This document shows, in pieces, positions 3,001 through 23,760 of a stretch of DNA of 64,000 nucleotides (within the stretch, counting starts at the first letter, position 1; every line of letters begins with the position of its first letter). The notes below the pieces were generated by a model that saw only the letters and a program-made list of their open reading frames with translations, was not told the DNA's origin and did no database searches. This stretch comes from Eledone cirrhosa. Taxonomy: Eukaryota. The DNA lies in NCBI GenBank assembly GCA_964016885.1, contig OZ024740.1, positions 1,922,001-1,986,000 on the forward strand, given 5' to 3'. The position numbers and the translations under genes are program-made.

Positions 3001-6000
3001 CATATAGTGACATATAGTGACATAGACACACAGTCACATATAGTGACATATAGTGACATAGACACACACAGTGACATATAGTGACATAGACACACACTGA
3101 CATATAGTGACATATAGTGACATACACACACAGTCACATATAGTGATATATAGTGACATAGACACACACAGTCACATATAGTGACATATAGTGACATAGA
3201 CACACACAGTCACATATAGTCACATATAGTGACATAGACACACACAGTCACATATAGTGACATAGACACACACAGTGACATAGACACACACAGTCACATA
3301 TAGTGACATAGACACACACAGTGACATATAGTGACATAGACACACACAGTCACATATAGTGACATATAGTGACATAGACACACACAGTGACATATAGTGA
3401 CATAGACACACACAGTCACATATAGTGACATATAGTGACATAGACACACACAGTGACATATAGTGACATAGACACACACAGTGACATATAGTGATATAGA
3501 CACACACAGTGACATATAGTGACATAGACACATACAGTCACATAGACATATACAGTCACATATAGTGACATAGATACATATAGTCACATATAGTCACATA
3601 TAGTCACATAGACATATACAGTCACATATAGTGACATAGATACATATAGTCACATATAGTCACATATAGTGACATATAGTGACATAGACATATACAGTCA
3701 CATAGACACATATAGTGACAGATACATACAGTCACATATAGTGATATAGACACATATAGTGACATAGACATATACAGTCACATAGATACATATAGTCACA
3801 TATAGTGACATAGACATATACAGTCACATATAGTCACATAGATACATATAGTCACATATAGTGACATAGACATATACAGTGACATATAGTCACATAGACA
3901 TACACTCACATATAGTGACAGATACATACAGTCACATATAGTCACATAGACATATACAGTCACATGTAGTGACATAGACACAGTCACATATAGTGACATA
4001 GACAGTCACATATAGTGACATAGACATATACAGTCACATATAGTGACATAGACACATATTCACATATAGTGACAGACATATACAGTCACATATAGTGACA
4101 TAGACATATACAGTCACATATTGTGACATAGACATAGACAGTCACATATAGTCACATAGATACATACAGTCACATATAGTGACATAGACATATACAGTCA
4201 CATATAGTGACATAAACATAGACAGTCACATATAGTGACATAGACATATGGTCACATGTAGTGACAGACATATACAGTCACATATAGTGACATAGACACA
4301 TACAGTGACATATAGTCACATATAGTGACATCGATACATAGTCACATATAGTGACATAGACACACATAGTCACATATAGTGACATATACAGATACAGTCA
4401 CATATAGTGACATATACAGATAGTCACATATAGTGACATATACAGATACAGTCACATATAGTGACATATACAGATAGTCACATATAGTGACATAGACAGA
4501 TAGTCACATATAGTGACATATACAGATACAGTCACATATAGTGACATAGACACATAGTCACATATAGTGACATAGACATATACAGTCACATATAGTGACA
4601 TATACAGATAGTCACATATAGTGACATATACAGATACAGTCACATATAGTGACATATATAGATACATTCACATATAGTGACATAGCCATATACAGTCACA
4701 TATAGTGACATAGACATATACAGTCACATATAGTGACATAGACAGATACAGTCACATATAGTGACATAGACACATAGTCACATATAGTGACATATACAGA
4801 TACAGTCACATATAGTGACATAGACATAGACAGTCACATATAGTGACATAGACACAGTCACATATAGTGACATAGATATATACAGTCACATATAGTGACA
4901 TAGACATAGACAGTCACATATAGTGACATAGACTTATACAGTCACATATAGTGACATAGACGTAGTCACATATAGTGACATAGACATTTAGTGACAGAGA
5001 TATAGAGTTTCATATAGTGACAGACATATAGTCACATATAGTGACATAGACATATAGAGTCACATATAGTCACATATAAATAGATTCACATATAGTGACA
5101 GATACATAGTCACATATAGTGACATAGACATATACAGTCATGTAGTGACATAGACATATACAGTCAAATATACTCACATAGACATACAGTCACATATAGT
5201 GACATAGACATAGTCACATAGTGACATATACATACAGTCACATATAGTGACATAGACATATACAGTCATGTAGTGACATAGACATATACAGTCACATATA
5301 GTGACATAGACATAGTCACATATAGTGACATAGACATAGTCACATAGTGACATATACATACAGTCACATATAGTGACATAGACATATAGTCACATATAGT
5401 GACATAGACATATACAGTTACATATAGTGACATAGACATAGTCACATATAGTGACAGACATATGGTCACATAGTGACATATACATACAGTCACATATAGT
5501 GACATAGACATACAGTCACATAGTGACATATACATACAGTCACATATAGTGACATAGACATATAGTCACATATAGTGACATAGACATATACAGTCACATA
5601 TAGTGACATAGACATAGTCACATATAGTGACATAGACATATGGTCACATAGTGACATATACATACAGTCACATATAGTGACATAGACATACAGTCACATA
5701 GTGACATATACATACAGTCACATATAGTGACATAGACATACAGTCACATATTGTGACATAGACTTATACAGTCACATATAGTGACATAGACATATAGAGT
5801 CACATATAGTGACATAGACATATAGTCACATAGACATATAGAGTCACATATAGTGACATAGACATATACAGTCACATATAGTCACATAGACATATACAGT
5901 CACATATAGTCACATATAGTGACATAGACATACACTCACATATAGTGACAGACATATACAGTCACATATAGTGACATAGACAGTCACATACAGTGACATA

Positions 6001-9000
6001 GACAGATACAGTCACATATAGTGACATAGACATATACAGTCACATATAGTCAGACATATACAGTCACATATAGTCACATAGACATATAGAGTCACATATA
6101 GTGACATAGACATAGACAGTCACATATAGTGACATAGACATATAGTCACATATAGTGACATAGACATATAGAGTCACATAGTGACATAGACATACAGTCA
6201 CATATAGTGACTTAGACATATACAGTCACATATAGTGACATAGACATATACAGTCACATATAGTCATATAGATACATATAGTGACATAGACATATACAGT
6301 CACATATAGTCACATAGACGTTAACAGTCACATATAGTGACATATACAGATACAGTCACATATAGTGACATAGACATAGTGACATAGACATAGTCACATA
6401 TAGTGACATAGACATAGACAGTCACATATAGTGACATAGACATATACAGTCACATATAGTGACATAGACATAGTCACATATAGTGACATAGACATAGACA
6501 GTCACATATAGTGACATAGACATAGTCATATATAGTCACATAGACATATACATACAGTCACATATAGTGACATAGACATACAGTCACATAGTGACATATA
6601 CATACAGTCACATATAGTGACATAGACATAGACATATAGTGACATAGACATATACAGTCACATATAGTGACATAGACATAGTCACATATAGTGACATAGA
6701 CATATGGTCACATAGTGACATATACATACAGTCACATATAGTGACATAGACATACAGTCACATATAGTGACATAGACACATACAGTCACATATATTGACA
6801 TAGACATAGTCACATATAGTGACATAGACATACAGTCACATAGTGACATATACATACAGTCACATATAGTGACATAGACATAGAGTCACATATAGTGACA
6901 TAGACGTATAGTCACATATTGTCACATAGACATATAGTGACATAGACATATAGAGTCACATATAGTGATGTAGACATATAGTCACATAGACATATACAGT
7001 CACATATAGTCACATATAGTGCCATAGACATACACTCACATATAGTGACATAGACATATACAGTCACATATAGTGACATAGACAGTCACATACAGTGACA
7101 TAGACAGATACAGTCACATATAGTGACATAGACACATAGTAACATATAGTGACATAGACATATACAGTCACATATAGTCACATAGACATATAGAGTCACA
7201 TATAGTGACATAGACATAGACAGTCACATATAGTGACATAGACATATAGTCACATATAGTGACATAGACATATAGAGTCACAGTGACATAGACATACAGT
7301 CACATATAGTGACTTAGACATATACAGTCAAATATAGTGACATAGACATATACAGTCACATATAGTGACATAGACATATAGAGTCACATATAGTGACATA
7401 GACATATAGTCACATATAGTCACATAGACATATACAGTCACATATAGTCACATATAGTGCCATAGACATACACTCACATATAGTGACATAGACATATACA
7501 GTGACATAGACAGTCACATACAGTGACATAGACAGATACAGTCACATATAGTGACATAGACACATAGTAACATATAGTGACATAGACATATACAGTCACA
7601 TATAGTCACATAGACATATAGAGTCACATATAGTGACATAGACATAGACAGTCACATATAGTGACATAGACATAGACAGTCACATATAGTCACATATAGT
7701 GACATAGACATATAGTCACATATAGTGACATAGACATATAGAGTCACATATAGTGACATAGACTTACAGTCACATATAGTGACTTAGACATATACAGTCA
7801 CATATAGTGACATAGACATATAGTCACATATAGTGACATAGACATATACAGTCACATATAGTCACATAGACATAGACAGTCACATATAGTGACATAGACA
7901 TATAGTGACATAGACATATAGAGTCATATAGTGACATAGACTTATAGTCACATATAGTGACTTAGACATATACAGTCACATATAGTCACATAGATACATA
8001 CAGTCACATATAGTCACATCGATACATATAGTGACATAGACATATTCAGTCACATATAGTGACATAGACATATACAGTCACATATAGTGACATATACAGA
8101 TACAGTCACATATAGTGACATAGACATATGGTCACATATAGTGACATAGACATAGTCACATATAGTGACATAGACATAGACAGTCACATATAGTGACATA
8201 GACATAGACAGTCACATATAGTGACATAGACATAGTCACATATAGTGACATAGACATTTAGTGACAGAGATATAGAGTTTCATATAGTGACAGACATATA
8301 GTCACATATAGTGACATAGACATATAGAGTCACATATAGTCACATATACATAGATTCACATATAGTGACAGATACATAGTCACATATAGTGACATAGACA
8401 TATACAGTCACATAGTGACATAGACATATACAGTCAAATATAGTCACATAGACATACAGTCACATATAGTGACATAGACATATAGAGTCACATATAGTGA
8501 CATAGACATATACAGTCACATATAGTCACATAGACATATAGAGTCACATATAGTGACATAGACATATTCAGTCACATATAGTCACATAGACATACACTCA
8601 CATATAGTGACATAGACATATAGTCACATATAGTGACATAGACATACAGTCACATGTAGTGACATAGACATATACAGTCACATATAGTGACATAGACATA
8701 GTCACATATAGTGACATAGACATATACAGTCAAATACAGTCACATATAGTGACATAGACATATACAGTCACATATAGTGACATAGATATATAGAGTCACA
8801 TATAGTGACATAGACATATAGTCACATATAGTGACATAAACATATAGTCACATATAGTGACTTAGACATATACAGTTACATATAGTCACATCGACACAGT
8901 CACATATAGTGACATAGACATACAGTCACATAAAGTGACATCGACATACAGTCACATAAAGTGACATCGACACAGTCACATATAGTGACATAGATGTATA

Positions 9001-9960
9001 GATTCACATATAGTGACATAGACATATACAGTCACATATAGTCAGACATATACAGTCACATATAGTGACATAGACATATACAGTCACATATAGTCACATA
9101 GACGTATAGTCACATATAGTGACATATACATATACAGTGACATACAGTCACATATAGTGACATAGACATATACAGTCACATATAGTCACATAGACATATA
9201 GTCACATATAGTGACATAGACATATACAGTCACATATAGTGACATGAGACATATACAGTCACATATAGTGACATAGACATATACAGTCACATATAGTGAC
9301 ATAGACATAGTCACATATAGTGACATAGACATAGTCACATAGTGACATATAGATAGAGTCACATATAGTGACATAGACATATACAGTCATATATAGTGAC
9401 ATAGACATATACAGTCACATATAGTGACATAGACATATACAGTCACATATAGTGACATAGACATAGTCACATATAGTGACATAGACATAGTCACATAGTG
9501 ACATATACATACAGTCACATATAGTGACATAGACATATGCAGTCACATATAGTGACATAGACATAGTCACATATAGTGACATAGACATAGTCACATATAG
9601 TGACATAGACATATACAGTCACATATAGTGACAGACATATACAGTCACATATAGTGACATAGACATAGTCACATATAGTGACATAGACATATACAGTCAC
9701 ATATAGTGACATAGACATATAGAGTCACATATAGTGACATAGACATATACAGTCACATATAGTGACATAGACATAGTCACATATAGTGACATAGTCATAC
9801 AGTCAAATATAGTGACATAGACATATACAGTCAGATATAGTCACATAGACATATAGTCACATGTAGTGACATAGACATATAGTCACATGTAGTGGCGTAG
9901 ACACAGTCACATATAGTGACATAGACATATACAGTCACATATAGTGACATAGACATATAC
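1..9960. repeat. Complex short-unit satellite (GTCACATATA / GTGACATAGACATATACA variants), running off the window start
   Basis: Continuous array of ~10-28 bp units. Diagnostic variants recur at an offset of ~6.8-7.1 kb (e.g. GTAGTGGCGTAGACAC at ~2764 and ~9889; near-identical ORF-track peptides at 2061/9186 and 2290/9415). Confidence 0.97.
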
Positions 9961-10150
9961 ACACTATCATACAGGCACACTCAGACACACACACATACTC
10001 AGACAAACGTACACACGCACACATTCAGAAATTCTAGCTCTAGTAGTAAGTAGAAAGTGAAGGGGAGGGGGGGGGGGGGGGGGGTAAACAGCTTGGGTCT
10101 TTTACATGAGAAATGTGTGTGTGTGTATTTTTGCATCTCTGTACTTGTCT

Positions 10151-10240
10151 TGACGAAGGACCATGACAAGTGGAGAGATGCTGTGCTGAATAGGGCCTGT
10201 CCAACCCTCGCAAGTAGGGAAAAGCAGACATAAAATGATG

Positions 10241-10241
<1 letters not shown>
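10151..10241 (+). mobile_element. 3' terminal remnant of RTE LINE family B
   Basis: TGACGAAGGACCATGACAAGTGGAGAGATGCTGTGCTGAATA...AGGGAAAAGCAGACATAAAATGATGAT matches the 3' end of the RTE fragment at ~12564-12645 and ends in a (TGA)n tail. Confidence 0.75.
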
Positions 10242-10268
<27 letters not shown>

Positions 10269-10272
<4 letters not shown>

Positions 10273-10670
10273 CACGTAAGAAACGGAGAATCAGTGGTGC
10301 GACGAATTAAAATTTATTAGACATATTACAATCGTTTCTTTGGCGACCAGCTCGAGGCACAATCGATGTAATGCTCGAACCTGACTCTGAAATCTCAAGA
10401 TCCTCAGAAACGTTCCCTTCATTTGGAAACTCTGCTTCAAAGAATCAAGATGTATCTGAGGATCTTGCGATTTCAGAGTCAGGTTCGATCATTACATCGA
10501 TTGTGCCTCAAGCTGGTCACCAGAGAAACAATTGTAATATGTCTAATAAATTTTAATTCGTTACACCACTGATCCTTTATTTCTTACGTGATATCATACT
10601 CTGCCCTGTAAGAGCATCGAGTGCTCAAACAGCCTACCGCATACGGACACTTTAAACATCCAACACCAAT
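10269..10670 (+). mobile_element. Penelope-like (PLE) remnant: inverted partial pLTR + pLTR + 3' extension, between (TA)n tracts
   Basis: ~140-bp imperfect inverted arms at 10269-10408 and 10455-10594. The arm holds a hammerhead core and AATAAA, followed by an unpaired 3' extension at 10595-10670, with (TA)n on both sides. This matches the known architecture of PLE insertions. Confidence 0.7.
10449..10543 (+). ncRNA. Type I hammerhead ribozyme with extended stem II
   Basis: Stem I GATGTAT(10449-55)/ATATGTC(10537-43), with 2 G-U pairs. Core CTGAGGA at 10456-62. ~62-nt imperfect stem II closed by TCT/AGA with an internal TCGAT/ATCGA helix. GAAA at 10525-28, palindromic CAATTG, GUA cleavage triplet ending at 10536, AATAAA at 10545-50. 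Confidence 0.75.
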
Positions 10671-10887
10671 TATATATATATATATATACTGTCTATATGG
10701 CTATGTACCACTAATGTCCTCATTTGCGAGTAACTTTCTTTTATAATCTTTATTATACCCATTGCTACAGACCACAACACCTTCACTCTCTTTAAATATG
10801 ACACAATTGATAGCAACAATAATATCAACGTATCTTTATGATTGTTCTGTTAAATAGGAATTTAATTATATGTTTAAGCTTTGCCAA

Positions 10888-10934
10888 TGCTCTGATGATA
10901 CCAAACAGCTGTTTGGAAGAAACAATTGTCAGCA
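10888..10934 (+). ncRNA. Minimal type I hammerhead ribozyme (PLE-type)
   Basis: TGCT-CTGATGA-TA-CCAAACAGCTGTTTGG-AA-GAAA-CAATTG-TC-AGCA. Stem I is TGCT/AGCA, stem II contains a perfect 16-nt palindrome, the GUC triplet ends at 10930, and AATAAA follows immediately. Confidence 0.85.
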
Positions 10935-11134
10935 ATAAAATGTATTAAACATAGATTTAATTGTTCTGTACTTTATATTGCTGTTCTGTAAGACATCTGA
11001 TGTATTTACATTGAGCTATTTCTCATATTGTTAATAAGGTGGTAAAAAATAAAAAATACTGACCTTTCCTATTTATAATTATATATAGTTTATATATAAG
11101 TATAAATGATATTATATATATATATATATATATA

Positions 11135-11922
11135 CTTAAGAAAATCAACAAAGAGAGGGTAAGGCAAAACGAAAGAGGAAACCTTAAAACATTTTAAAAA
11201 AATTAGGCGATTTAGCGATCTCTTTCTCTTTTTAGATAGATACAGAGATATGACGTCGCACCTTCATTATATCTGTCTGTATGTCTGGCTGTCTGCATTA
11301 CAACATTATGACGCGATCAGTGTGTGTGTGTGTGTGTGTGTATATATAAATATTCTTATGCCAGGGAACATCTTCATGAACCAAAGTATCGTCTTCCTGT
11401 TTTCCTTCGGTTGCAAAGTTTTTCGAAATATTTACATCTGCGTACACAGATTGATTTTTTTAGTTTCAGAAGATCCCGTTAAGGTTGAAAGCAGCGATTC
11501 TTTGCTTAAACATTAATATGTTATTTTAATATAGATATTCGTGTACAGATATTTTTGCATACACAAAAACAAAATATAAACAAACAAGGCCAACGATTAC
11601 ATCAGTTAGTCTTAGTGTACTTCATACTGCTTTCAGGTAGAAGATCCCGTTAAGGGTGAAAGCAGCGATTCATTTTCCTTATTCACAGATTTTTTTAGTT
11701 TCAGAAGATCCCGGTAAGTGTGAAAGCAGCAATTCTTTGCTTAAACTTTAATTTGTTATTTTAATATATATATAATTATATATTTGTATACAGATATTTT
11801 TGCATACACAATAACAAAATATAAACAAGGTATTTATTTCACGAGGCTCGATAAGGATAAATATATATCAAATATATAAGAACCCTAGAGCAAATCCTGA
11901 GCAACACCGGGCCATTCTGCTA

Positions 11923-11923
<1 letters not shown>
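11135..11923 (+). mobile_element. Non-autonomous Helitron-like element in (TA)n
   Basis: 3' end CCTGAGCAACACCGGG (degenerate hairpin)...CTAG|T, internal direct duplication (~11445-11583 / ~11685-11828), (TA)n flanks. No coding evidence. Confidence 0.5.
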
Positions 11924-11972
<49 letters not shown>

Positions 11973-11974
<2 letters not shown>

Positions 11975-12646
11975 AAGGGAAATTAGACAGTAGAAGTCAC
12001 ATTGATAGACACATTTTTCAAATGCAGGCGGGTGCTATAGAAGTGGTGGATAGCGTCCGGTACCTAGGAGATCAGATTAGCATGGGAGGGGTGTTCCGAG
12101 GCCATAGTATCTAGAATAAGGACGGGTTGGAAGAAGTTTAGGGGGCTGCTTCCTCTGCTGATGAAGAAGGGTTTCTCCCTGCGTACGAAAGGCTGGTTGT
12201 ATGATGCCTGTGTGAGGAACGCGATGCTGCATGGTAGTGAGACATGGGCAGCATCTGCAGAGGATATGCAACGGCTGGAGAGAAATGAGGCAAGCATGCT
12301 CCATTGGATGTGCAATGTCAATGTGCGTGAACGACCCAGCATCAATGTGTTGAGAGAGAAACTGTGTCTGAGAGAGATAGAATGTAGTGTGCGGGAGAGG
12401 AGACTGAGGTGGTATGGACATGTGATGCGCATGGAGGATGACCGATGGGTGAGGAAGTGCCAGGAAATGCCAGTTGAAGGAAGACGTGGTAGAGGTAAAC
12501 CACGAAAAACATGGGCGGAGGTGGTGAGAACAGACCTCAGATCGCTGAAGCTCATAGTGAAGATGACGAAGGACCGTGACAAGGGGAGAGATGCTGTGCT
12601 GAATAAGACCCATCCTACCCTTGCAAGCAGGGAAAAGTGATGATGA
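11973..12646 (+). mobile_element. 5'-truncated RTE LINE, family B (C-terminal RT region and 3' end)
   Basis: Encodes IEVVDSVRYLGD and then LYDACVRNAMLHGSETW..RRLRWYGHVMR..RGRGKPRKTW (ORF 12161-12640). The tail ACCCTTGCAAGCAGGGAAAAG(TGA)n sits directly at the ORF end. Nucleotide sequence differs clearly from family A. Confidence 0.9.
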
Positions 12647-12764
12647 GTGTAACTTGGAGTTACTGTAGGTTCACGCGGGTGAGCACTCGATTTTTAGTCT
12701 CACTCCAGTGTCGAGGTATGGAGCTAGACAGTGTATTATAGTGAAATAAAATAACAAGGACGAA

Positions 12765-15417
12765 TCATCATCATCGTTTAACGTCCATCTTCCACGCTTG
12801 CATGGGTTTGGACTGGAATTTTCCCACTTGAGGCAAGATTGGTTGTCTTGCTCGTATAGGACTGTCTGGCGGCTTTTCTACGGCTGGATGCCCTTCCTAA
12901 CACCAACCACATTTACAGTGTGGACTGGGAGGTTCTTACCGTGTTACCTACACGGCCACATTACAGCGTGGACTGTGTGTCTTTTTGTCGTGACACCTAC
13001 ACGACCTCATTTATTTAGGACTGGATGTTGTGGTACCAACATAGCTTTACATTGAAAGGGGTGGTGTGGATGAGGTGGGGGTAGTGTGGGACGGGGGTGT
13101 ATTTTTGTTAGAGGTGCCTACTGACTGTAGGTTTCGCTTTGTACTTAGGCAAGGCGGGTCTTCTGTATTACTGTGTAGCGCCAAAGATCTCGGTCCAGTG
13201 ACATTGTCTTGGAGAGGTGTAAGTGTGTGAGGTCGGAATATATCAGGTCGTCCCAGGTTTTTCTGGGTCTGCCTACTCCGTGGCTACCGTCTATTTTTAT
13301 CACCCTGCACTTTTTTATACAGCTGTCGTCTTTCATGCGCATCACATGACCATACCAACGTAGTCTTCTCTCAAGTAAACATCTGATCCCTCTTATTTCT
13401 AATTTCTCCCTTAGTTCGTTTATGCTTTGCCGTTCACATATATTACTATTACACATCCAGCGGAGCATGCAAGCTTCCTTCCTCTCCAATCTGCGTATAT
13501 CCTCTGCACACAATGCCCAGGTCTCACTGCCATGTAACATTGCTGTTCGTATACATGCATCATACAGCCTGCCTTTCATTTTTAGAGAGAACCCTTTAGC
13601 GGCCAATAGTGGTATAAGCTCTCTGAACTTTTTTCATCCCGTTCTGACTCTAGCTACTGTACTTTCAGAGCACCCTCCACCACTGCTGATTTTGTCACCC
13701 AGGTAACGGAAGGTGTCCACTATTTCTATAGAACCATCTGTGCAATGGAATGAGCTAGTATTCTGTGGGCACTTGCTGCTACTTATTGCACCAGAGCACC
13801 GGCCACATATAAAATCTATATTCTTAGTTAGCTTACCTGTTTAGCCTACATCTTTTATGCACCCATACTTTGCATTTGGGACATAAAATGGAGTTTCTGC
13901 TTACTCCTTTCCTACACACTGAGCATGGCCATTTCCCGGAAGGGACCGGTGCCCTATTTTCCTTCCTACAAACTAGAACTTTAGTCTTAGACAGGTTAAT
14001 TTTAAGGCCTTTTGATTCTAGGCCATGCTTCCATGTTTGGAATTTCTTCTCTAGTTGAGCCATTGATTCAGCTATGAGCGTTAGACCATCTGCATATAGG
14101 ATTTCCCATTGGCAGCCGGTCTTGAACTCTTCTGTTATAGCCTGAAGGGCAATAATAAATAGTAGGGGGCATCACCTTTACCCTTGTAGCAGTTAATGAT
14201 GCTGCTGCTACGCCAGTCCTTCGGAACGACCCCATTCTGTATGACTTGGTTTACTATCCGGGAGACCATAGTGTGTCCCACCGTTCCAGATGCTTTCAGC
14301 AACTATTTCCGAAGGCCCAGCCACCTTACCCGTCTTCATATCTTTGATTGCCTTACTTATTATACAACCTTCAACTAGCACTGCTGGTCCCTCTATTGGA
14401 TCGATGTGCGGGAGACTGTCTTTCTCCCATTTATTCTCCTCATTTAGTAGCCTTTGGTAGTGATACTTCCAAGCTACCTTCTTATCAGCGTCAGTGATGG
14501 CAAGTACACCATCATCATTACGGACACACTTCTCCCCTACAATATCACGGTTCTCCTTGACACATTGCCTAGCAATCCTGAACACCTCACGTTTTTGGTC
14601 CTCGCGTTGTAGAATATGCTTGAACTTTCTTTCCTCTGCTTCCCTTCTTGCGAAGTACACTTGTCTCCTAGCTTCCCTCCTAGCCACTTGATAGTCTTCT
14701 CTACTTCCCCCATCCCACCATACTTTCCAAGCCTGCTTTTTGGCCTTAATTGACTCCTCCACCTTACTGTTCCACCACCAAGTTACTCTCCTCCTGCCTA
14801 TAGGCCTGCTCCAGCCACAGACTTCATCTGCCACCTTCAGCAGGTTAGCTTTCAGGAATACCCACTGTTCCTCTATATTGTACGACTCTAAGTGCTCTTC
14901 CTTACTGTCAAAAGCATCAAGTAATATGCTTTTAAATTTATTACTGGCTGTGGGGTCCTTTAGCTTCCATATTTTTCTCCTGAGGATAGTCCTCCTCTGT
15001 TGTCGAGTATGTCTTGTCCTGACTATGAGTCTATGTTGGGAGGTGCATTCGTCATGGGGAAGGGATTTAGTGTTTACAACAGACACTCTATCACGTCTTC
15101 TGGTAAGGATATAATCTATCTGACTGGCGTGTTCTCCTGATCTATAGGTGATCAAGTGATTGTCTCGTTTTTTAAAGTTAGTGTTACAGATAGTTAGGTT
15201 ATTTGCGTCACAGAATTCCAGGATTCTGGAGCCTTCCTCATTTCTAGTACCAAACCCATAGCCTCCATGGATTCCGTCATAGCCGTCACAATGTTGTCCA
15301 ACATGACCATTTAGGTCACCAGCAATAATTATATAGTCACTGTCTTTTATAACGCCAGGCAGTCCGGATTGGGGTGCGTATGCAGATATTACTGTCACAG
15401 TAGTTCTATTTAGGACT
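12765..15417 (-). mobile_element. Degenerate RTE LINE family A copy (5'-truncated, internally deleted)
   Basis: ORF fragments 14208-15398 (APE endonuclease: ISAYAPQ, AGDLNGHVG, SQIDYIL), 13833-14063 and 13145-13606. 3'UTR and (TGA)n tail at ~12765. A ~0.4-kb deletion of RT core motifs is joined at a GCCC microhomology near 14167. Confidence 0.95.
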
Positions 15418-15764
15418 CACTATATATATATATATATATATTCTTTACAGATTTCAGTCAATAGGCTGTAGTTAAACTGGGTCTCCACGTTCAAGGAATT
15501 TAATTGAACTCAACATGTTTTGTTTTGATTTTCTGCAAATTTTGGCACTTATTTTATCAATTTCTGTTTGTCAAACTGCTAATTTAAGAGTAAATGTAAA
15601 AACACACACATATCATTAAGATAACTACATTGCAAAGACCAGTATTCTTCTGTGAAGCCAGGAATTTACTTCAACCTTAGCCAGTTGCTAAACATCCACC
15701 TTGTATGAGTTAGATGCGGAGTCCTTTGCAGTGAAGCCTCCTTCCACCTAACATATATGCCTGG

Positions 15765-16128
15765 TATACCTGTTACCCCAAGTTAACCCTTATAACATTG
15801 TGACACTCCTAGTTCTGCCTACCCTACCTGTTACCCCAGGTAAACCCTTATAACATTGTGACACTCCTAAATCTGCCTGCTATACCTGTTACCCCAGGTT
15901 AACCCTTATGTCACCCTGACACTCCTAGGTCTGCCTGCTCTACCTATTACCCCAGGTTAACCCTTATGTCACCATTATGACATTATGACACTCCTAAATC
16001 TGCCTGGTATACCTGTTACCCCAGGTTAATCCTTATATCACCACGACACTCCTAGGTCTGCCTGCTATACCTGTTACCCCAGGTTAACCCTTATGTCACC
16101 CTGACACTCCTAGGTCTGCCTGCTATAC
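15765..16128. repeat. ~58-bp minisatellite, ~6 copies
   Basis: ACCTGTTACCCC (one variant) recurs at 15768, 15826, 15884, 15942, 16011 and 16069. Confidence 0.9.
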
Positions 16129-16321
16129 ATGTTGAAATACACAATGTGTTTCAAATGAAATACACAATCTGTGTGTTTCAATTAATTTTGAAAATCATTG
16201 GAAATTCAGAGGAATTTAATATAATAATTAACATTTTCAATACTAAGCTAATGTTTGAAAATTAAATCACTTAACAAAAATTTCTTTGAAAATTTTGGTT
16301 AAAGGTTTAAATATAAGTATT

Positions 16322-16451
16322 AATTCATAAAAATAATTTGAAATTCAATGCAAGGAATAACTATTAAAACAGACAAATGCCACCAATGAGTGTTTGGCTG
16401 TTTTAACAGTTATTCTTCCTGTGTTGAATTTTCAGATTATTTCTATGAATT
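16322..16451. repeat. Imperfect ~57-bp inverted repeat (probable old PLE/MITE remnant)
   Basis: AATTCATAAAAATAATTTGAAATTCAA..TAAAACAGACAAA pairs with TTTGGCTGTTTTAAC..TTATTTCTATGAATT. Confidence 0.65.
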
Positions 16452-16589
16452 TCAAATACACTCTCACTTCATCTTGATATTCAAGATAACAATCTAAACT
16501 ATAATAAAGTAAGGAGTGTGGGACTGTGTACGGTTTATAATTTTTTATCCCCTTAGTCAAATAAGTTGGATTACTTTGAATAAATAATT

Positions 16590-16729
16590 GTTTCTACTTT
16601 AGGCACATTACTGGTACTTTATTTTATCGTCCCCGTAAGGATGAAAGGCAAAGTTAACCTCAGCGGGACGTAACTATGCTAGAAAGCATGGCTTCCAACC
16701 CTCTACCGATACTGCCAATTCACCGCCCC
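16590..16729 (-). mobile_element. tRNA-derived SINE (same family as 58948-59135)
   Basis: The reverse complement reads GGGCGGTGAATTGGCAGTATCGGTAGAGGGTTGG..GAGGTTAACTTTGCCTTTCATCCTTACGGGGACGATAAAATAAAGTACCAG. Confidence 0.85.
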
Positions 16730-17058
16730 TTATTACTTTGAATAAATAATGAATGAATATTACATAATTTATCTACTAAATTTCGTAGCTGTTGATTAAA
16801 TATATTTTATTGTTTAAAGATTCACTTCTTTAAAATTTTCAAATGTCAGCACTTCCGGTTAGCGCCCGTTATATTATAACACTTATAAAAACATTGCATA
16901 TATTTCCGTCACTAATTTTTCTCCTAATGCAGTTTATATATAATATGGTCTTTTTTTAATGTATCATGGATTACGTTACTAATTACATAAGAGAGTGTAA
17001 CACAGTCTTTGTTCAATTTCTGTGGATATTGTCAATTACGATTTTATTTGATCGAAAT

Positions 17059-17310
17059 TGTGTAGGTGTCACGACAAAAAAACACAGTCCACGCTGTAAT
17101 GTGGCCGTGTAGGTAACATGGTAAAAAGTTCCCAGTTACACACTGTAAATGTGGTTGGTGTTAGGAAGGGCATCCAGACGTAGAAAACCTGCCAGACAGT
17201 CCTATATGAGCAAGACATGGTCACCCGAACAACCTTGCCTCAAGTGGGACAACTCCCGTCTAACCCATGCTAGCGTGGAAGATAGACGTTAAACGAAGAT
17301 GATGATGATG
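17059..17310 (+). mobile_element. 3'UTR-only fragment of RTE family A
   Basis: GTGTAGGTGTCACGACAAAAAAACACAGTCCACGCTG..GGAAGGGCATCC..(GAT)n matches 22258-22518. Confidence 0.9.
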
Positions 17311-17862
17311 ATCATCATCATCATATCTACATGCATATATACTTGCGTATAATATCAATATACACTCTACACATGCTAGCAGAAAACCACCCGTAGTGTT
17401 TATAAGTATTAATATTTTATGATGGGAAGTTTTATACCATAAAACCAGAGTTGTCTCAGGTGGTCTCAGGCCATTAAATAGGTTAACTCTGATTTTCATT
17501 CACTCTTTTGCTGCTACGTGCTACATTACTGTTCTGTATTAATATCACTCCAGCCACCCACACTTTCTCCCTCACTTCCATGTTGGCTAATCCAGCTGTA
17601 ATCTCTTTTATGTTGTTGACATATTTACATCATAGCTTAGATCATTGTCAGATAATCAACACTTCTCCATTTGAGAGGATATAAGACAGACAACTAGACA
17701 ACTGCTTCTCTACCTCGTCAGCCACCTTCTGGTGAGCAATTTCGTGCATTAGAGTGAAATTGCTGCTATAATACCAGACTGGAGAAACACTCTATTGGTA
17801 ATTAAAAATAATAATGAAAATTATTGTGCACAGTAGTGTGTGTGTGTGTGTGTGTGTGTGTA

Positions 17863-18060
17863 TCATCATCGTTTAATGTCCATTTTTCCACGCTAGCATG
17901 TGTTAGATAGGTTGTCCCATTTGTGGCAAGCTGGGTCAGGTGACAGTGTCTTGTTCTGGTTTCTACAGCTAGGTGCCCTTCCTAACGCCAACCATATTCA
18001 CAGTGAGTACAGGGAGCCTTTTGTCATGACACCTACATGACCACTTTACAGTGTGGGCTG
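17863..18060 (-). mobile_element. SINE 3' half with RTE-like tail
   Basis: The reverse strand contains GGTTGGCGTTAGGAAGGGCACC and ends GGACATTAAACGATGATGA. Confidence 0.7.
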
Positions 18061-18142
18061 GGTGTTTATATATATATATGATGAAAAATCGCCAACTCGC
18101 TATTTCTGGGATGGCTGTTCCCTTCGGTATAAAGTAACGTTC

Positions 18143-18752
18143 AAATTTTTCTCGATTCTTCTCTCCATTCGAACCCATTCATTCAATCACTTCTATGTCC
18201 TAAATTCACACTATATCATATTTTCACCATTATATATCATATCTTTTCTCTAAAAATCATATTTCCCCTATCACCGCATTTTCTCTACCGTATTTTCTTA
18301 AACAAAACAAATCTTGTATTTTCGTTTATTTTTAAATTATGCCCAAAATTTTTTCTCGATTCTTCTCTCCATTCGAACCCATTCATTCAATCACTTCTAT
18401 GTCCTAAATTCACACTATATCATATTTTCACCATTATATATCATATCTTTTCTCTAAAAATCATATTTTCCCTATCACCGCATTTCCTCTACCGTATTTT
18501 TTTAAACAAAACAAATCTTGTATTTTCGTTTATTGTTAAATTATGCCCAATTTTTCTCGATTCTTCTCTCCATTCGAACCCATTCATTCAATCACTTCTA
18601 TGTCCTAAATTCACACTATATCATATTTTCACCATTATATATCATATCTTTTCTCTAAAAATCATATTTTCCCTATCACCGCATTTTCTCTATCGTAATT
18701 TCTTAAACAAAACAAATCTTGTATTTTCGTTTATTGTTAAATCATGCCCAAA
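18143..18752 (+). repeat. Three tandem ~201-204-bp repeats in the LINE 5' region
   Basis: CTCGATTCTTCTCTCC starts at 18151, 18355 and 18556. Each unit ends in ATGCCCAA. Confidence 0.92.
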
Positions 18753-19102
18753 ATACGGCGATCTTATCTTAAACCTTACATTCTCGCTAACAACCCATCA
18801 TCCCTCCCGCCCCCACGCACCACCATTATTACGTGGACCAATCATAAGTCAGAGGCCCATACTATCGCTTAACTGGTTGCTTTTCGATATGATGGATGGA
18901 CTACGGAATTCTGGAGAGTTGAAGAGAGAAAAATGTGGACGCTCAGCGACAATGCCAAAGATAAAGCCAAATTCACCTCGTGGACGAGAATGCAAGCACT
19001 CCTCCTTGTTTCGGCCCAGGATGGCTAACATAACCCCATCCCCCCCCCGCGCCCCACCGCTCCCACCCTCCAAACGCAATCCAAAACTTCAGAGTCGGTA
19101 CC

Positions 19103-22100
19103 ATGAATGTAGGCACCTTAAAGGGTCGCTCTAACGAGGTTGTAGAAATGCTTGAACGTAAGGAGGTCGATGTTTGTTGTATTCAAGAGACCAGGTGGAG
19201 GGGAGGGTCGGCTAGATTCATCGTGGGTAAAGAGCGATGCTATAAGCTTTTCTGGGTGGGAAATGACAATGGGTTGGGTGGGGTAGGAATCATGGTAGCA
19301 GAAAAGTGGGCAGATAAGATAATAGACGTAAATAGAGTGAACGACAGAATAATTAAAATAAGACTTGTCCTCAATAAAACTACGGTGACAGTAATATCTG
19401 CGTACGCACCCCAATCCGGACTGCCCCGCGCTATAAAAGACAGATTCTACGAGACACTGATGCTCGCTACCTCCCAAATAACCGACAGTGACTATATAGT
19501 TATTGCAGGTGACCTAAATGGTCACGTTGGACAACATTGTGACGGCTATGACGGAATCCATGGAGGCTATGGGTTCGGTACTAGAAATGAGGAAGGCTCC
19601 AGAATCCTGGAATTCTGCGACGCAAATAACTTAACTATCTGTAACACTAACTTCAAAAAACGAGACAATCACTTGATCACCTATAGATCGGGGGAACACA
19701 CAAGCCAGGTAGATTATATCCTTACCAGAAGACGTGACAGAGTGTCTGTTGTTAACACTAAATCCCACCCCCATGAAGAATTCACCTCCCAACATAGACT
19801 GATAATTAGCGACCTCATAGTCAGGACGAGACGTACTAGACAGCGAAAGAGGACTATCCTCAGGAGAAAAATATGGAAGCTAAAGGACCCCATAGCCAGA
19901 AATAAATTTCAAAGCAAATTACTTGACGCTTTCGACAGTAAGGAAGAGCAATTAGAGTCGTATAATATAGAGGAACAGTGGGAATTCCTGAGAGCAAACC
20001 TGCTGACGGCGGCAGACGAAGTCTGTGGCTGGAGCAGGCCTGTAGGTAGGAGGAGAGTAACATGGTGGTGGAACAGTAAGGTGGAGGAGTCAATTAAGGC
20101 CAAAAAGCAGGCTTGGAAAGTATGGCGGGATGGGGGAAGTAGAGAAGACTATCAAGTGGCCAGGAGGGAAGCTAGGAGACAAGTGTACTTCGCAAGAAGG
20201 GAAGCAGAGGAAAGAAAGTTCAAGCATGTTCTACAACGTGAGGACCAAAAACGTGAGGTGTTCAGGATTGCCAGGCAATGTGTCAAGGAAAACCGTGATA
20301 TTGTCGGGGAGAAGTGTGTACTTAACGATGATGGCATACTTGCCATCACCGACGCTGATAAGAAGGTAGCTTGGAAGTGTCACTACGAAAGGCTTCTAAA
20401 TGAGGAGAACAAATGGGAGAAAGACAGTCTCCCCCAGATCGATCCAATAGAGGGACCAGCAGTGTTAGTTGAAGGTAGTATAATAAGTAAGGCAATCAAA
20501 GATATGAAGACGGGTAAGGCGGCTGGGCCTTCGGAAATAGTTGCTGAGATGCTGAAGGCATCTGGTTCGGTGGGACACACCATGGTCACCCGGATAGTTA
20601 ACCAAGTCGTACAGAATGGGGTTGTTCCGAAGGAATGGCGTAGCAGCATCATCGTTAACTGCTATAAGGGAAAAGGAGATGCCCTAGATAGGGGTAACTA
20701 TAGAGGCATTAAATTAATCGACCAGGTCATGAAGGTCACGGAAAAAGTAATAGCGCAACTAATCAGAGAGAGAATTGATCTAGATGAAATGCAGTTCGGG
20801 TTTGTGTCAGGCAAAAGTACCACAGACGCTCTTTTCATTGTACGACAACTACAGGAGAAGTACCTAGCTAAAAGTAAACCCCTATACTTAGCTTTTGTCG
20901 ACTTGGAGAAAGCCTTCGACAGAGTCCCCCGTTCCATTATCTGGTGGTCTCTTAGAAAACTAGGTGTTGACGAATGGCTTGTGAGAGCTATACAAGCCAT
21001 GTATAAAGAAACAGTCAGTAAGGTTAGAATTAACAACGAATATAGTGAAGAGTTTAGCGTAAAAGTTGGTGTCCATCAGGGCTCTGTACTTAGCCCCCTA
21101 CTATTTATTATTGCCCTTCAGGCTATAACAGAGGAGTTCAAGACCGGCTGCCCATGGGAACTCCTATACGCAGATGATCTAACGCTCATAGCTGAATCAA
21201 TGACCGAACTAGAGAAGAAATTCCAAACGTGGAAGCACGGCCTAGAATCAAAAGGCCTTAAAATTAACCTGGCTAAGACTAAAGTTCTAGTTTGTAGGAA
21301 AGAAAATAAGGCGGCGGTCCCATCGGGGAAATGGCCATGCTCAGTGTGTAGGAAAGGCGTAGGTAGAAACTCCATTTTATGTCCCAAATGCAAAGTATGG
21401 GTGCATAAAAGATGTAGTGGGATCACAGGTAAGCTAACTAAGAACATAGATTTTACATGTGGCCGGTGCTCTGGTGCAATAAGTAGCAGCAAGTGCCCAC
21501 AAAATACTAGCTCCTTCAACTGCGCAGAGGGTTCTATAGAAATAGTGGACAGCTTCCGTTATCTGGGTGACAAAATCAGCAGTGGGGGAGGGTGCTCTGA
21601 AAGTACAGTAGCTAGAGTCAGAACTGGATGGAAAAAGTTCAGAGAGCTTATACCACTATTAGCCGCTAGAGGGTTCTCCCTAAAAATGAAAGGCAGGTTA
21701 TACGATGCCTGCATACGAACAGCAATGCTGCATGGCAGTGAGACCTGGGCATTGTGTGCAGAGGATATACGCAGACTAGAGAGGAACGAAGCTTGCATGC
21801 TCCGCTGGATGTGCAATAGTAATATACGTGAACGGCAAAGCATAAACGAACTAAGAAAAAAATTAGAAATAAGAGGGATCAGATGTTGTTTACTCGAGAG
21901 AAGGCTACGTTGGTACGGTCACGTGATGCGCATGAAAGACAACAGCTGTATAACAAAGTGCAGGGCAATAAAGATAGACGGTAGCCACGGAGTAGGCAGA
22001 CCCAGATAAACATGGGACGAGCTGATAAATTCCGACCTCACACGCTTACACCTCTCCAAGACAATGTCACTGGACCGAGACCTTTGGCGGCACTCAGTAA

Positions 22101-22123
22101 TAGAGAAGACCCGCCTTACCTAA
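19103..22123 (+). pseudogene. RTE LINE endonuclease-reverse transcriptase ORF with a late nonsense codon at 22007-22009 and a probable 5' frameshift
   Basis: EN motifs FRVGTMNVGTL, CCIQETRW, GDLNGHVG and SQHRL. RT motifs NYRGIKLI, FVDLEKAFD, GVHQGSVLSP, LLYADD and FRYLG. AGA-TAA-ACA here corresponds to AGA-AAA-ACC in the 62-64 kb copy; the native stop is at 22121-22123. Confidence 0.93.
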
Positions 22124-22485
22124 ATACAAAGTAAAAACCTACTACAGTCAGTAGGCACCTCTATCAAAACACACCCCCGTCCCACCACCTCCACACCGCC
22201 CCTTTCAATGTAAAGTTATGTTGGTCCCACAACATCCAGGCCGAAACAAATGAGATCGTGTAGGTGTCACGACAAAAAACACACAGTCCACGCTGTAATG
22301 TGGCCGTGTAGGCAACACGGTAAAAACCTCCCAGCCCCACACTGTAAATGTGGTTGGTGTTAGGAAGGGCATCCAACTGTAGAAAACCCGCCAGACAGTC
22401 CTATGCGAGCAAGACAACCACTCTTGCCTCAAGTGGGAAAACCCCCGTCCAAACCCATGCAAGCGTGGAACACGGACGCTAAACC

Positions 22486-22519
<34 letters not shown>

Positions 22520-22581
22520 AAGTAAGGAACTAGAGCTTGGTAGAAGTGTTGGGATTTGTGTGTGGTATACATTCGGATCTA

Positions 22582-22632
22582 GCTGTCAAAACGTCCGGAG
22601 CTCAGCCATCGGGGTCCTGACTCTTTTCCTAT
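22582..22632 (+). mobile_element. Single arm of the PLE-like hairpin element found at 56300-56401
   Basis: GCTGTCAAAACGTCCGGAGCTCAGCCATCGGGGTCCTGACTCTTTTCCTAT is nearly identical to 56351-56401. Confidence 0.8.
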
Positions 22633-22636
22633 ATAT

Positions 22637-23760
22637 AAAGTTCTAGTATGTAGGAAGGAAAATAGGGCACAGGTGCCATCTGGGAAATGGCCATGCTCAG
22701 TGTGTAGGAAAGGAGTAGGCAGAAATTCCATTTTATGTCCCAAATGCAAAGTATGGGTGCATAAAAGATGTAGTGGGATCACAGGTAAACTATCTAAGAA
22801 CGTAGATTTTATATGTAGCCAGTGTTCAGGTGCAATAAGTAGCAAGTGCCCACAGGATACGAGCTCCTTCTATTGTCCAGATGGCTCTATAGAAATAGTG
22901 GACACCTTCCGTTACCTGGGTGACAAAATCAGCAGTGGTGGAGGGTGCTCTGAAAGTACAGTAGCTAGAGTCAGAACGGGATGGAAAAAGTTCAGCTTAT
23001 GCCACTATTGGTCACAAAAGGTGTCTCTCTAAACATGAAAGGCAGACTGTATGATGCCTGCATACGAACAGCTATGTTACATGGCAGTGAGACCTGGGCA
23101 TTGTGCAGAGGATCTGCGCAGATTGGAAAGGAACGAAGCATCCATGCTCCGTTGGATGTGTAATAGTAATATACGTGAACAGCAAAACATAATAGAACTG
23201 AGAAATTAAGAATAAGAGGAAGCAGATGCTGTTTACTCGAGAGAAGACTACGTTGGTATGGTCACGTGATACGCATGAAAGACGACGGCTGTATAAATAA
23301 GTGCAGGGCGACCAAAATTGACGGAAGTAACAGAGTAGGCAGACCCAGAAAAACCTGGGACGATTTGATAAATTCCGACCTTACACACTTGCACCTCTCT
23401 AAGACAATGCCACTGCAGTAATAGAGAAGACCCACCTTGCCTAAGTACAAAGCGAAACCTACAGTAGGCACTTCTTAATCAAATATACACCCCCATCAAC
23501 ACCTAAAGTTATGTTGGTACCACAACATCCAGTCCTAAATAAATGAGGTCGTGTAGGTGTCACGACAAAAAAACAGTCCACGCTGTAATGTGGCTGTGTA
23601 GGTAACACGGTAAAAACCTCCCAGTCCACACTGTAAACGTGGTTGGTGTTAGGAAGGGCAGACAGTCCTACACGAGCAAGACAACCAATCTTGCCTCAAG
23701 TGGGACCCCGTCTAAACCCATGCTAGCTTGGAAGATAGACGTTAAACGATGATGATGATG
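22637..23760 (+). mobile_element. 5'-truncated, decayed RTE family A copy (PHD to 3' tail)
   Basis: ORF 22673-23032 GKWPCSVC..HKRC..CSQC..FRYLGD, frameshifted C-terminus, 3'UTR and (GAT)n tail. Confidence 0.92.

Follow-up and report, generated by a model that had tools for sequence, protein, structure and literature searches.

The two same-strand hammerhead motifs in the analyzed window (64,000 nt, C1:1922001-1986000 of the 3.0 Gb Eledone cirrhosa genome) are best explained, with a probability of roughly 85%, as the truncated 3′ ends of two different Penelope-like elements (PLEs), likely of the Hydra clade, that lie at one (TA)n site and likely do not act jointly. Both pieces are multi-copy and flanked by TA runs, their longer copies have an RT/GIY-YIG ORF upstream, and the hammerhead fold covaries across subfamilies. 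Joint action is disfavored by folding predictions, in which a 143-bp hairpin locks up motif 1. All positions given without a prefix refer to the window.

Inspection of the + strand confirmed the coordinates given in a preliminary description for two type I hammerheads with predicted cuts after 10536 and 10930, 394 nt apart. Motif 1 (10449-10543) is composed of a CUGAGGA core (CTGAGGA, 10456-10462), a stem I of 7 bp including two G-U pairs (10449-10455/10537-10543), a 62-nt stem II region (10463-10524), GAAAC at 10525-10529, and a GTA site ending at 10536. Motif 2 (10888-10934) contains a CUGAUGA core (CTGATGA, 10892-10898), a 4-bp stem I (10888-10891/10931-10934), a 20-nt stem II region (10899-10918) with a U-A pair, an A.A mismatch and 6 bp, GAAAC at 10919, and a GTC site ending at 10930. 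The same stem III palindrome, ACAATTGT, was indeed found in both (10528-10535 in motif 1, 10922-10929 in motif 2, both on +). CUGANGA, GAAA, A15.1-U16.1, an NUH site, and stems I and II, which together define type I hammerheads, are present in both motifs; the first stem II pair is U-A in both, G10.1-C11.1 being absent. A relaxed descriptor applied to 10001-31000 gave two matches, motifs 1 and 2, and none in each of 100 first-order Markov resamples; thus, the motifs are not chance matches. In the Rfam hammerhead scan that had been proposed as a check, the motifs stood by inspection but received no Rfam support: the whole window gave no match at the gathering threshold, no hammerhead family was found at E≤1 in 9500-12000, and the weak matches obtained were hairpin models on the inverted repeat and the TA runs. 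A third hammerhead motif, missed in the preliminary description, is located on the − strand in an inverted arm, with a CTGAGGA core, GAAAC at 10338, and a GATT loop. AATAAA occurs at 10545-10550 and 10934-10939, and within about 10 nt after stem I in most families; on the intron's sense strand, it could serve as a polyadenylation signal.

PF01237 exons flank both motifs on the + strand (C1:1905611-1905745 and window 26162-26259, the latter marking the end of the intron), which places them, as had been presumed, on the sense strand of a 42.4-kb intron of an OSBP-family gene. A (TA)-rich run at 10242-10268 forms the left end of insertion A and its target site, and TA runs likewise flank other family A copies. 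The two insertions are separated by (TA)9 at 10671-10688, in line with the earlier assignment, and insertion B ends on its right side at (TA)11 (11113-11134). Elsewhere in the window, a tandem repeat of 24-28 nt units precedes the locus (9000-10000, just 5′ of it), several LINE copies with AP endonuclease and RT lie at 12064-23480 (one of them with a 991-aa open frame at 19034-22009, −), and a G/T-skewed tandem array of 22 kb occupies about 32000-54000 in another intron of the same gene.

Repeat comparison identified the forward part (10412-10670, +) of insertion A (10269-10670) as the 3′ end of a family A PLE with a pLTR extending to 10594 and a 76-nt tail (10595-10670). It is preceded by an inverted, 5′-truncated and tail-less family A pLTR (10269-10411, −), which carries the third motif and of which 130 of 143 nt are complementary to 10452-10594, so that the two segments pair in the sense RNA. 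The tail is on one arm only, the arm-arm junction varies from one family A copy to another, and TA runs were found on both sides of the copies. The resulting hairpin (10269-10594, 143 bp) had a folding energy of −224 kcal/mol when 10260-10600 was considered, and is a possible substrate for dsRNA editing or small-RNA formation. A genome search gave 3,648 first-look candidates, 40 of which were scored, yielding 80 matches; other copies among those scored were 81-90% identical to the window copy. The exact family A hammerhead pattern was present in 1,832 genome copies versus none in the control.

Covariation was evaluated in 29 family A copies, comprising 28 of the first 30 pattern loci (2 near repeats were left out) and one more. 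In this set of related copies, whose core columns were constant owing to the search pattern, 92.6% of stem cells were paired versus 27-42% with slid partners. Six pairs changed on both sides, a number reached in 85 of 500 shuffles; none of the 500 reached the observed cell count or score. In stem I, A-U was replaced by G-C in five copies, and stem II pairs also changed on both sides. These compensatory changes support, though they do not prove, the assignment of motif 1 as a real hammerhead despite its 62-nt stem II. A first ORF search in 20 longer family A stretches gave no clear link. By walking through 660 nt of common 3′ UTR, a GIY-YIG endonuclease was reached at a distance of about 1.8 kb on the upstream side; it was present in 6 of 30 longer loci (L152, L154, L160, L163, L164, and L169), and the link so made runs through a sister subfamily whose identity to the window copy is about 82-87%. 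The translated endonuclease contains CNCRVGEEC (CxC-x5-C), and RT motifs were found only in a candidate downstream ORF at L164. The family A 3′ UTR also contains a 52-nt unit that has grown into long minisatellites in some copies (L116, L149, and L174-L180).

Insertion B (10687-11112, +) was assigned by repeat comparison to the 5′-truncated 3′ end of a family B PLE, with a pLTR to 10978 and a tail of about 134 nt to about 11112. From 2,911 candidates in the genome search, 40 were scored and gave 51 matches. Other copies reach further 5′ than the window copy, inverted copies end at the equivalent of 10978, and no inverted arm is located near insertion B. At L091, an ORF with RT and GIY-YIG (3530-5949) is followed on the same strand by family B sequence (7162-7615); three more of six family B stretches show an inverted arrangement. 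The translation contains RWR, DKT, and CNCRTNRTC. The motif 2 core reads CCGAT in 22 of 27 other copies (CCGAUGA, U4C) and CTGATG in three; that the window copy has the canonical CTGATGA, unlike most of its family, counts against our preferred explanation. Families A and B are different repeat families with a TA run between them, and both motifs reside in PLE 3′ ends; both the two independent insertions and the PLE-type hammerheads with palindromic stem III of the preliminary description were thereby borne out.

Judged from their motifs and (TA)n targets, both families are likely PLEs of the Hydra clade, whose members insert at (TA)n and contain hammerheads (PMC8557442). The Hydra hallmarks RWR, DKT, CxC-x5-C, and FNPP were present in the translated ORFs and were matched by eye to published Hydra proteins, and a Pfam search with six PLE ORF pieces gave nothing above the cut-off. 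An RT and GIY-YIG ORF upstream of the hammerhead-bearing pLTR is found in the longer copies; the window copies have no ORF. The insertions further exhibit 5′ truncation, an inverted 5′ copy (family A), and a tail at one end only, all marks of PLEs. File S2 of Craig et al. (2021, PMC8557442), which already includes a Hydra family from an octopus, lists elements that, like those described here, have an ORF with C-terminal GIY-YIG, RWK-like, DKT, and CxC-x5-C motifs; (TA)n targets; and a type I motif close to the 3′ end. Also shared with elements of that source are a short near-palindromic stem III, as in Penelope-2_NV (acaa-gt-ttgt), and a 7-bp stem II with an extra base on each side, as in Penelope-1_SK; U.U is common there as the first stem II pair of Hydra motifs. 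However, all 26 Hydra rows of this file have a CTGA core and a loop 2 of ≤10 nt, whereas CCGA predominates among the short motifs here and the stem II region of family A measures 62 nt; the 3′ UTRs of 1.2-1.8 kb were counted as another difference from the Hydra PLEs published there. The tails (76 and about 134 nt) exceed the 30-40 nt described for PLEs. The minimal PLE hammerheads reported by Cervera and de la Pena (2014, PMC4209133) are similar in having a larger stem II, a stem I of 4-5 bp, and a palindromic stem III. According to that report they are mostly single truncated copies, and pairs 100-700 bp apart lie on opposite strands, whereas the pair studied here combines two families on one strand; their consensus keeps G10.1-C11.1, which the motifs here do not. 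Other Hydra-type families with stem II regions of 81-82 nt were located beside RT/GIY-YIG ORFs (L087:620-720, L090:4560-4670, and L094), and the stem I sequence differs between families yet stays complementary in each. L087 contains two same-strand motifs 3,992 nt apart around an ORF. Two near full-length Hydra-type elements (L095 and L096, at C1:4.41 Mb and 14.07 Mb) have same-strand motifs 4,234 and 4,258 nt apart, an inverted copy upstream, and broken ORFs.

The stem III pattern GAAACRATTGTH, i.e. GAAAC(A/G)ATTGTH, gave 63,731 matches in the genome versus 2,587 for the reversed control, with the loop states AATT in 56,824 and GATT in 6,907. Tandem arrays account for part of the forward-strand excess; those of 27-nt and 34-nt units containing the stem III word begin at C2:219999028 and C4:361754613. 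Since these 63,731 matches are spread across many families, ACAATTGT is a common stem III of many families, and its sharing by the two motifs is no local coincidence. In the closest family A copies, stem III is mostly ACGATTGT (24 of 38 arms with GATT, three with AATT, and three with the other CpG decay product), and the same form prevails in family B (GATT in 21 of 27, AATT in none); the inverted family A arm of the window itself retains GATT. Because both families mostly have ACGATTGT and the family B core is mostly CCGATGA, the perfect palindromes of the window and the CTGA core of motif 2 likely reflect three CpG transitions. An origin of ACAATTGT solely by CpG decay was too narrow an explanation: families A and B agree with it, but most genomic matches are AATT, and other families have this state fixed. 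The GATT form also self-pairs in folding predictions (−5.8 versus −6.4 kcal/mol for the AATT form); CpG decay thus explains away the coincidence, not the pairing. Of the 9,689 complete short motifs that share this stem III genome-wide, 7,660 have the U4C core (CCGANGA). This exchange considerably lowers hammerhead activity in vitro, yet suffices for a viroid according to Perreault et al. (2011, PMC3088659), and C or T at the same position is reported among deep-sea viral hammerhead motifs (PMC13481778). Our literature search, in which few subscription papers were covered, retrieved nothing on U4C or a long stem II in Hydra PLEs, nor on cross-family dimers. The 2017 study of PLE hammerhead dimers by Lunse and colleagues may already cover such core variants or cross-pairing.

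Neighbors of this kind are not restricted to the window. Among the matches listed for the first ~1.6 Gb, and with two satellite arrays set aside, same-strand stem III matches 382-412 nt apart occur at at least 24 non-array places, versus about 7 pairs in a hand estimate for independent placement (about 3-fold excess). A TA run lies between the motifs in 21 of the 24 pairs; by a simple rule, both cores are present in five, three of which are cross-family (the window locus, L206, and L209). The excess likely reflects shared TA targeting, which is not separated from selection in these counts. Extrapolated to spacings of 100-1000 nt, these counts would imply cross-family pairs with both cores numbering in the order of a hundred. 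Of the first 30 family A pattern loci, four, the window locus included, have a partner on the same strand no more than 1.4 kb away; at 19 of 19 further top-hit family A loci and 19 of 19 further family B loci, the other family was absent. Cross-(sub)family pairs with both cores and ACAATTGT are located at L206 (C3:320022461-320022870, +, 398 nt apart), L209 (C3:365377846-365378257, −, 400 nt apart, with no inverted arm in 1.6 kb), and L127 (C1:47.38 Mb, −, 325 nt apart). PLEs have been described to insert next to PLEs, and their hammerheads to act as dimers (PMC6765202).

In the model put forward by the preliminary description, the 8-nt palindromes bring the motifs together, cleavage takes place after 10536 and 10930, and the 394-nt RNA thereby set free may circularize. 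In isolation, the active folds were predicted at +4.7 (motif 1) and +5.7 kcal/mol (motif 2). In a fold of 10200-11000, a segment contained in any host pre-mRNA, motif 1 was paired to the upstream arm with a mean probability of 0.94 and its stem I had a probability of 0.000, so that sequestration of ribozyme 1 by this arm, named in that description as an example of what would refute its proposal, was obtained in silico. The active fold of motif 1 in this segment was predicted at +121.8 kcal/mol and the heterodimer, estimated by parts, at +120.2 kcal/mol. With the arm present, the two motifs are predicted not to be free to swap stem III strands in one transcript. As motif 1 lies within the 143-bp inverted arm, with an active fold about 120 kcal/mol uphill in the pre-mRNA, a working heterodimer is highly improbable. 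It is further disfavored by the chimeric composition of the 394-nt piece, in which two unrelated tails are joined (33% GC, no tandem unit), by the absence of a second A-B copy (0/19 A and 0/19 B top-hit loci), and by the likely origin of the perfect palindromes from CpG decay; no further exact stem III motif on + within the host gene was present among the matches listed. Such a dimer would nevertheless combine two canonical cores through an 8-bp duplex of −6.4 kcal/mol, PLE and retrozyme hammerheads are reported to act as dimers (PMC4209133, PMC6765202, and PMC7229834), and A-to-I editing might open the hairpin, as might an internal start. In the arm-free segment 10430-10960, the gap between the heterodimer and the free fold shrank to about +4.8 kcal/mol (by parts, core contacts uncounted), so that heterodimer formation would be open to an RNA with its start between about 10412 and 10449. 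The in vitro construct suggested earlier, 10430-10960, is without the inverted arm; hence, a positive result there could fail to apply in vivo. Contigs from three sequencing runs of a single study gave many short pieces of repeat copies and no signal bearing on expression or RNA ends. Published dimers cleave to a limited extent: those of minimal PLE motifs are reported to cleave weakly, single motifs showing no detectable cleavage in vitro (PMC4209133), and Xenopus retrozyme dimers cleaved in 1/9 (Li et al. 2026, 10.64898/2026.07.22.740005).

Slow cutting of the intron by motif 2 alone, whether by a monomer whose stem III has 2-3 bp or in trans with one of many palindrome-compatible copies, and with little consequence for the host, is likewise very unlikely. 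Its context is permissive in that no inverted arm is near insertion B, its active fold was predicted at +7.0 kcal/mol with stem II 88% formed, its core is canonical, and about 50,000 compatible palindromes are dispersed in the genome; however, the probability of stem I was about 0.05, and stem II opens with U-A and A.A rather than G-C. The lack of detectable cleavage by single minimal motifs (PMC4209133) argues in the same direction, as does the finding that in an active Anolis PLE no RNA-seq reads end at the cut site (Frangieh 2024, PMC11167929). The same study describes cleavage as unneeded for insertion in vitro. Hardly credible is a foldback DNA element (MITE) as the source of insertion A, with motif 1 as a chance match. 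The 143-nt inverted arms, the TA flanks, the missing Rfam hammerhead match, and the unusual 62-nt stem II would fit such an element; its arm junction, however, varies by copy, one arm has the 76-nt tail, compensatory changes affect stems I and II, and longer copies run on into a 3′ UTR and a GIY-YIG ORF. The endonuclease upstream of longer family A copies largely refutes this reading. A non-LTR retrozyme was also considered, as these elements have same-strand type I motifs 170-400 nt apart, which fits in monomer size (Cervera and de la Pena 2020, PMC7229834; Li et al. 2026). Retrozymes are described as tandem repeats of one unit (PMC7229834), whereas two unrelated PLE ends are found here; with no tandem repeat unit and only a 12-nt word in common between the two halves, this origin was rejected.

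For two truncated PLE ends at one (TA)n site, we infer that endonuclease targeting of (TA)n placed A beside B, and that the inverted arm of A was formed in the course of insertion, a usual event in PLEs. Subsequent CpG deamination would have converted ACGATTGT to ACAATTGT in both motifs, and CCGA to CTGA in motif 2. During pre-mRNA synthesis, the left arm, being transcribed first, is predicted to capture motif 1, and motif 2 would be left without a cis partner, cleaving weakly or not at all, with no 394-nt RNA formed.

The motifs are thus real and of a known kind, and are likely neighbors by chance. The locus itself is ordinary, with two fossil PLE ends in an intron that represent one of an estimated hundreds of such neighbors. 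The genome-wide yield amounts to about 9,700 short and at least 1,800 long-stem Hydra-type PLE hammerhead motifs; most of the short ones are U4C and are missed by CUGANGA descriptors and Rfam. Compared with all 26 Hydra rows of File S2 (PMC8557442), the variant features are the 62-nt stem II, U4C, and one palindrome shared across families. It is unlikely that TA-stacked neighbors form heterodimers that cut intronic RNA into chimeric circles of 300-400 nt, with U4C and stem II regions of 60-80 nt as active variants. In that case, the window locus would work only with the hairpin opened, and L209, arm-free in 1.6 kb, would be the better case. One stem III palindrome would then make tens of thousands of hammerheads cross-compatible. 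The motif set makes it testable whether PLE hammerheads need to cleave, and whether cross-family motifs can dimerize via their common palindrome.
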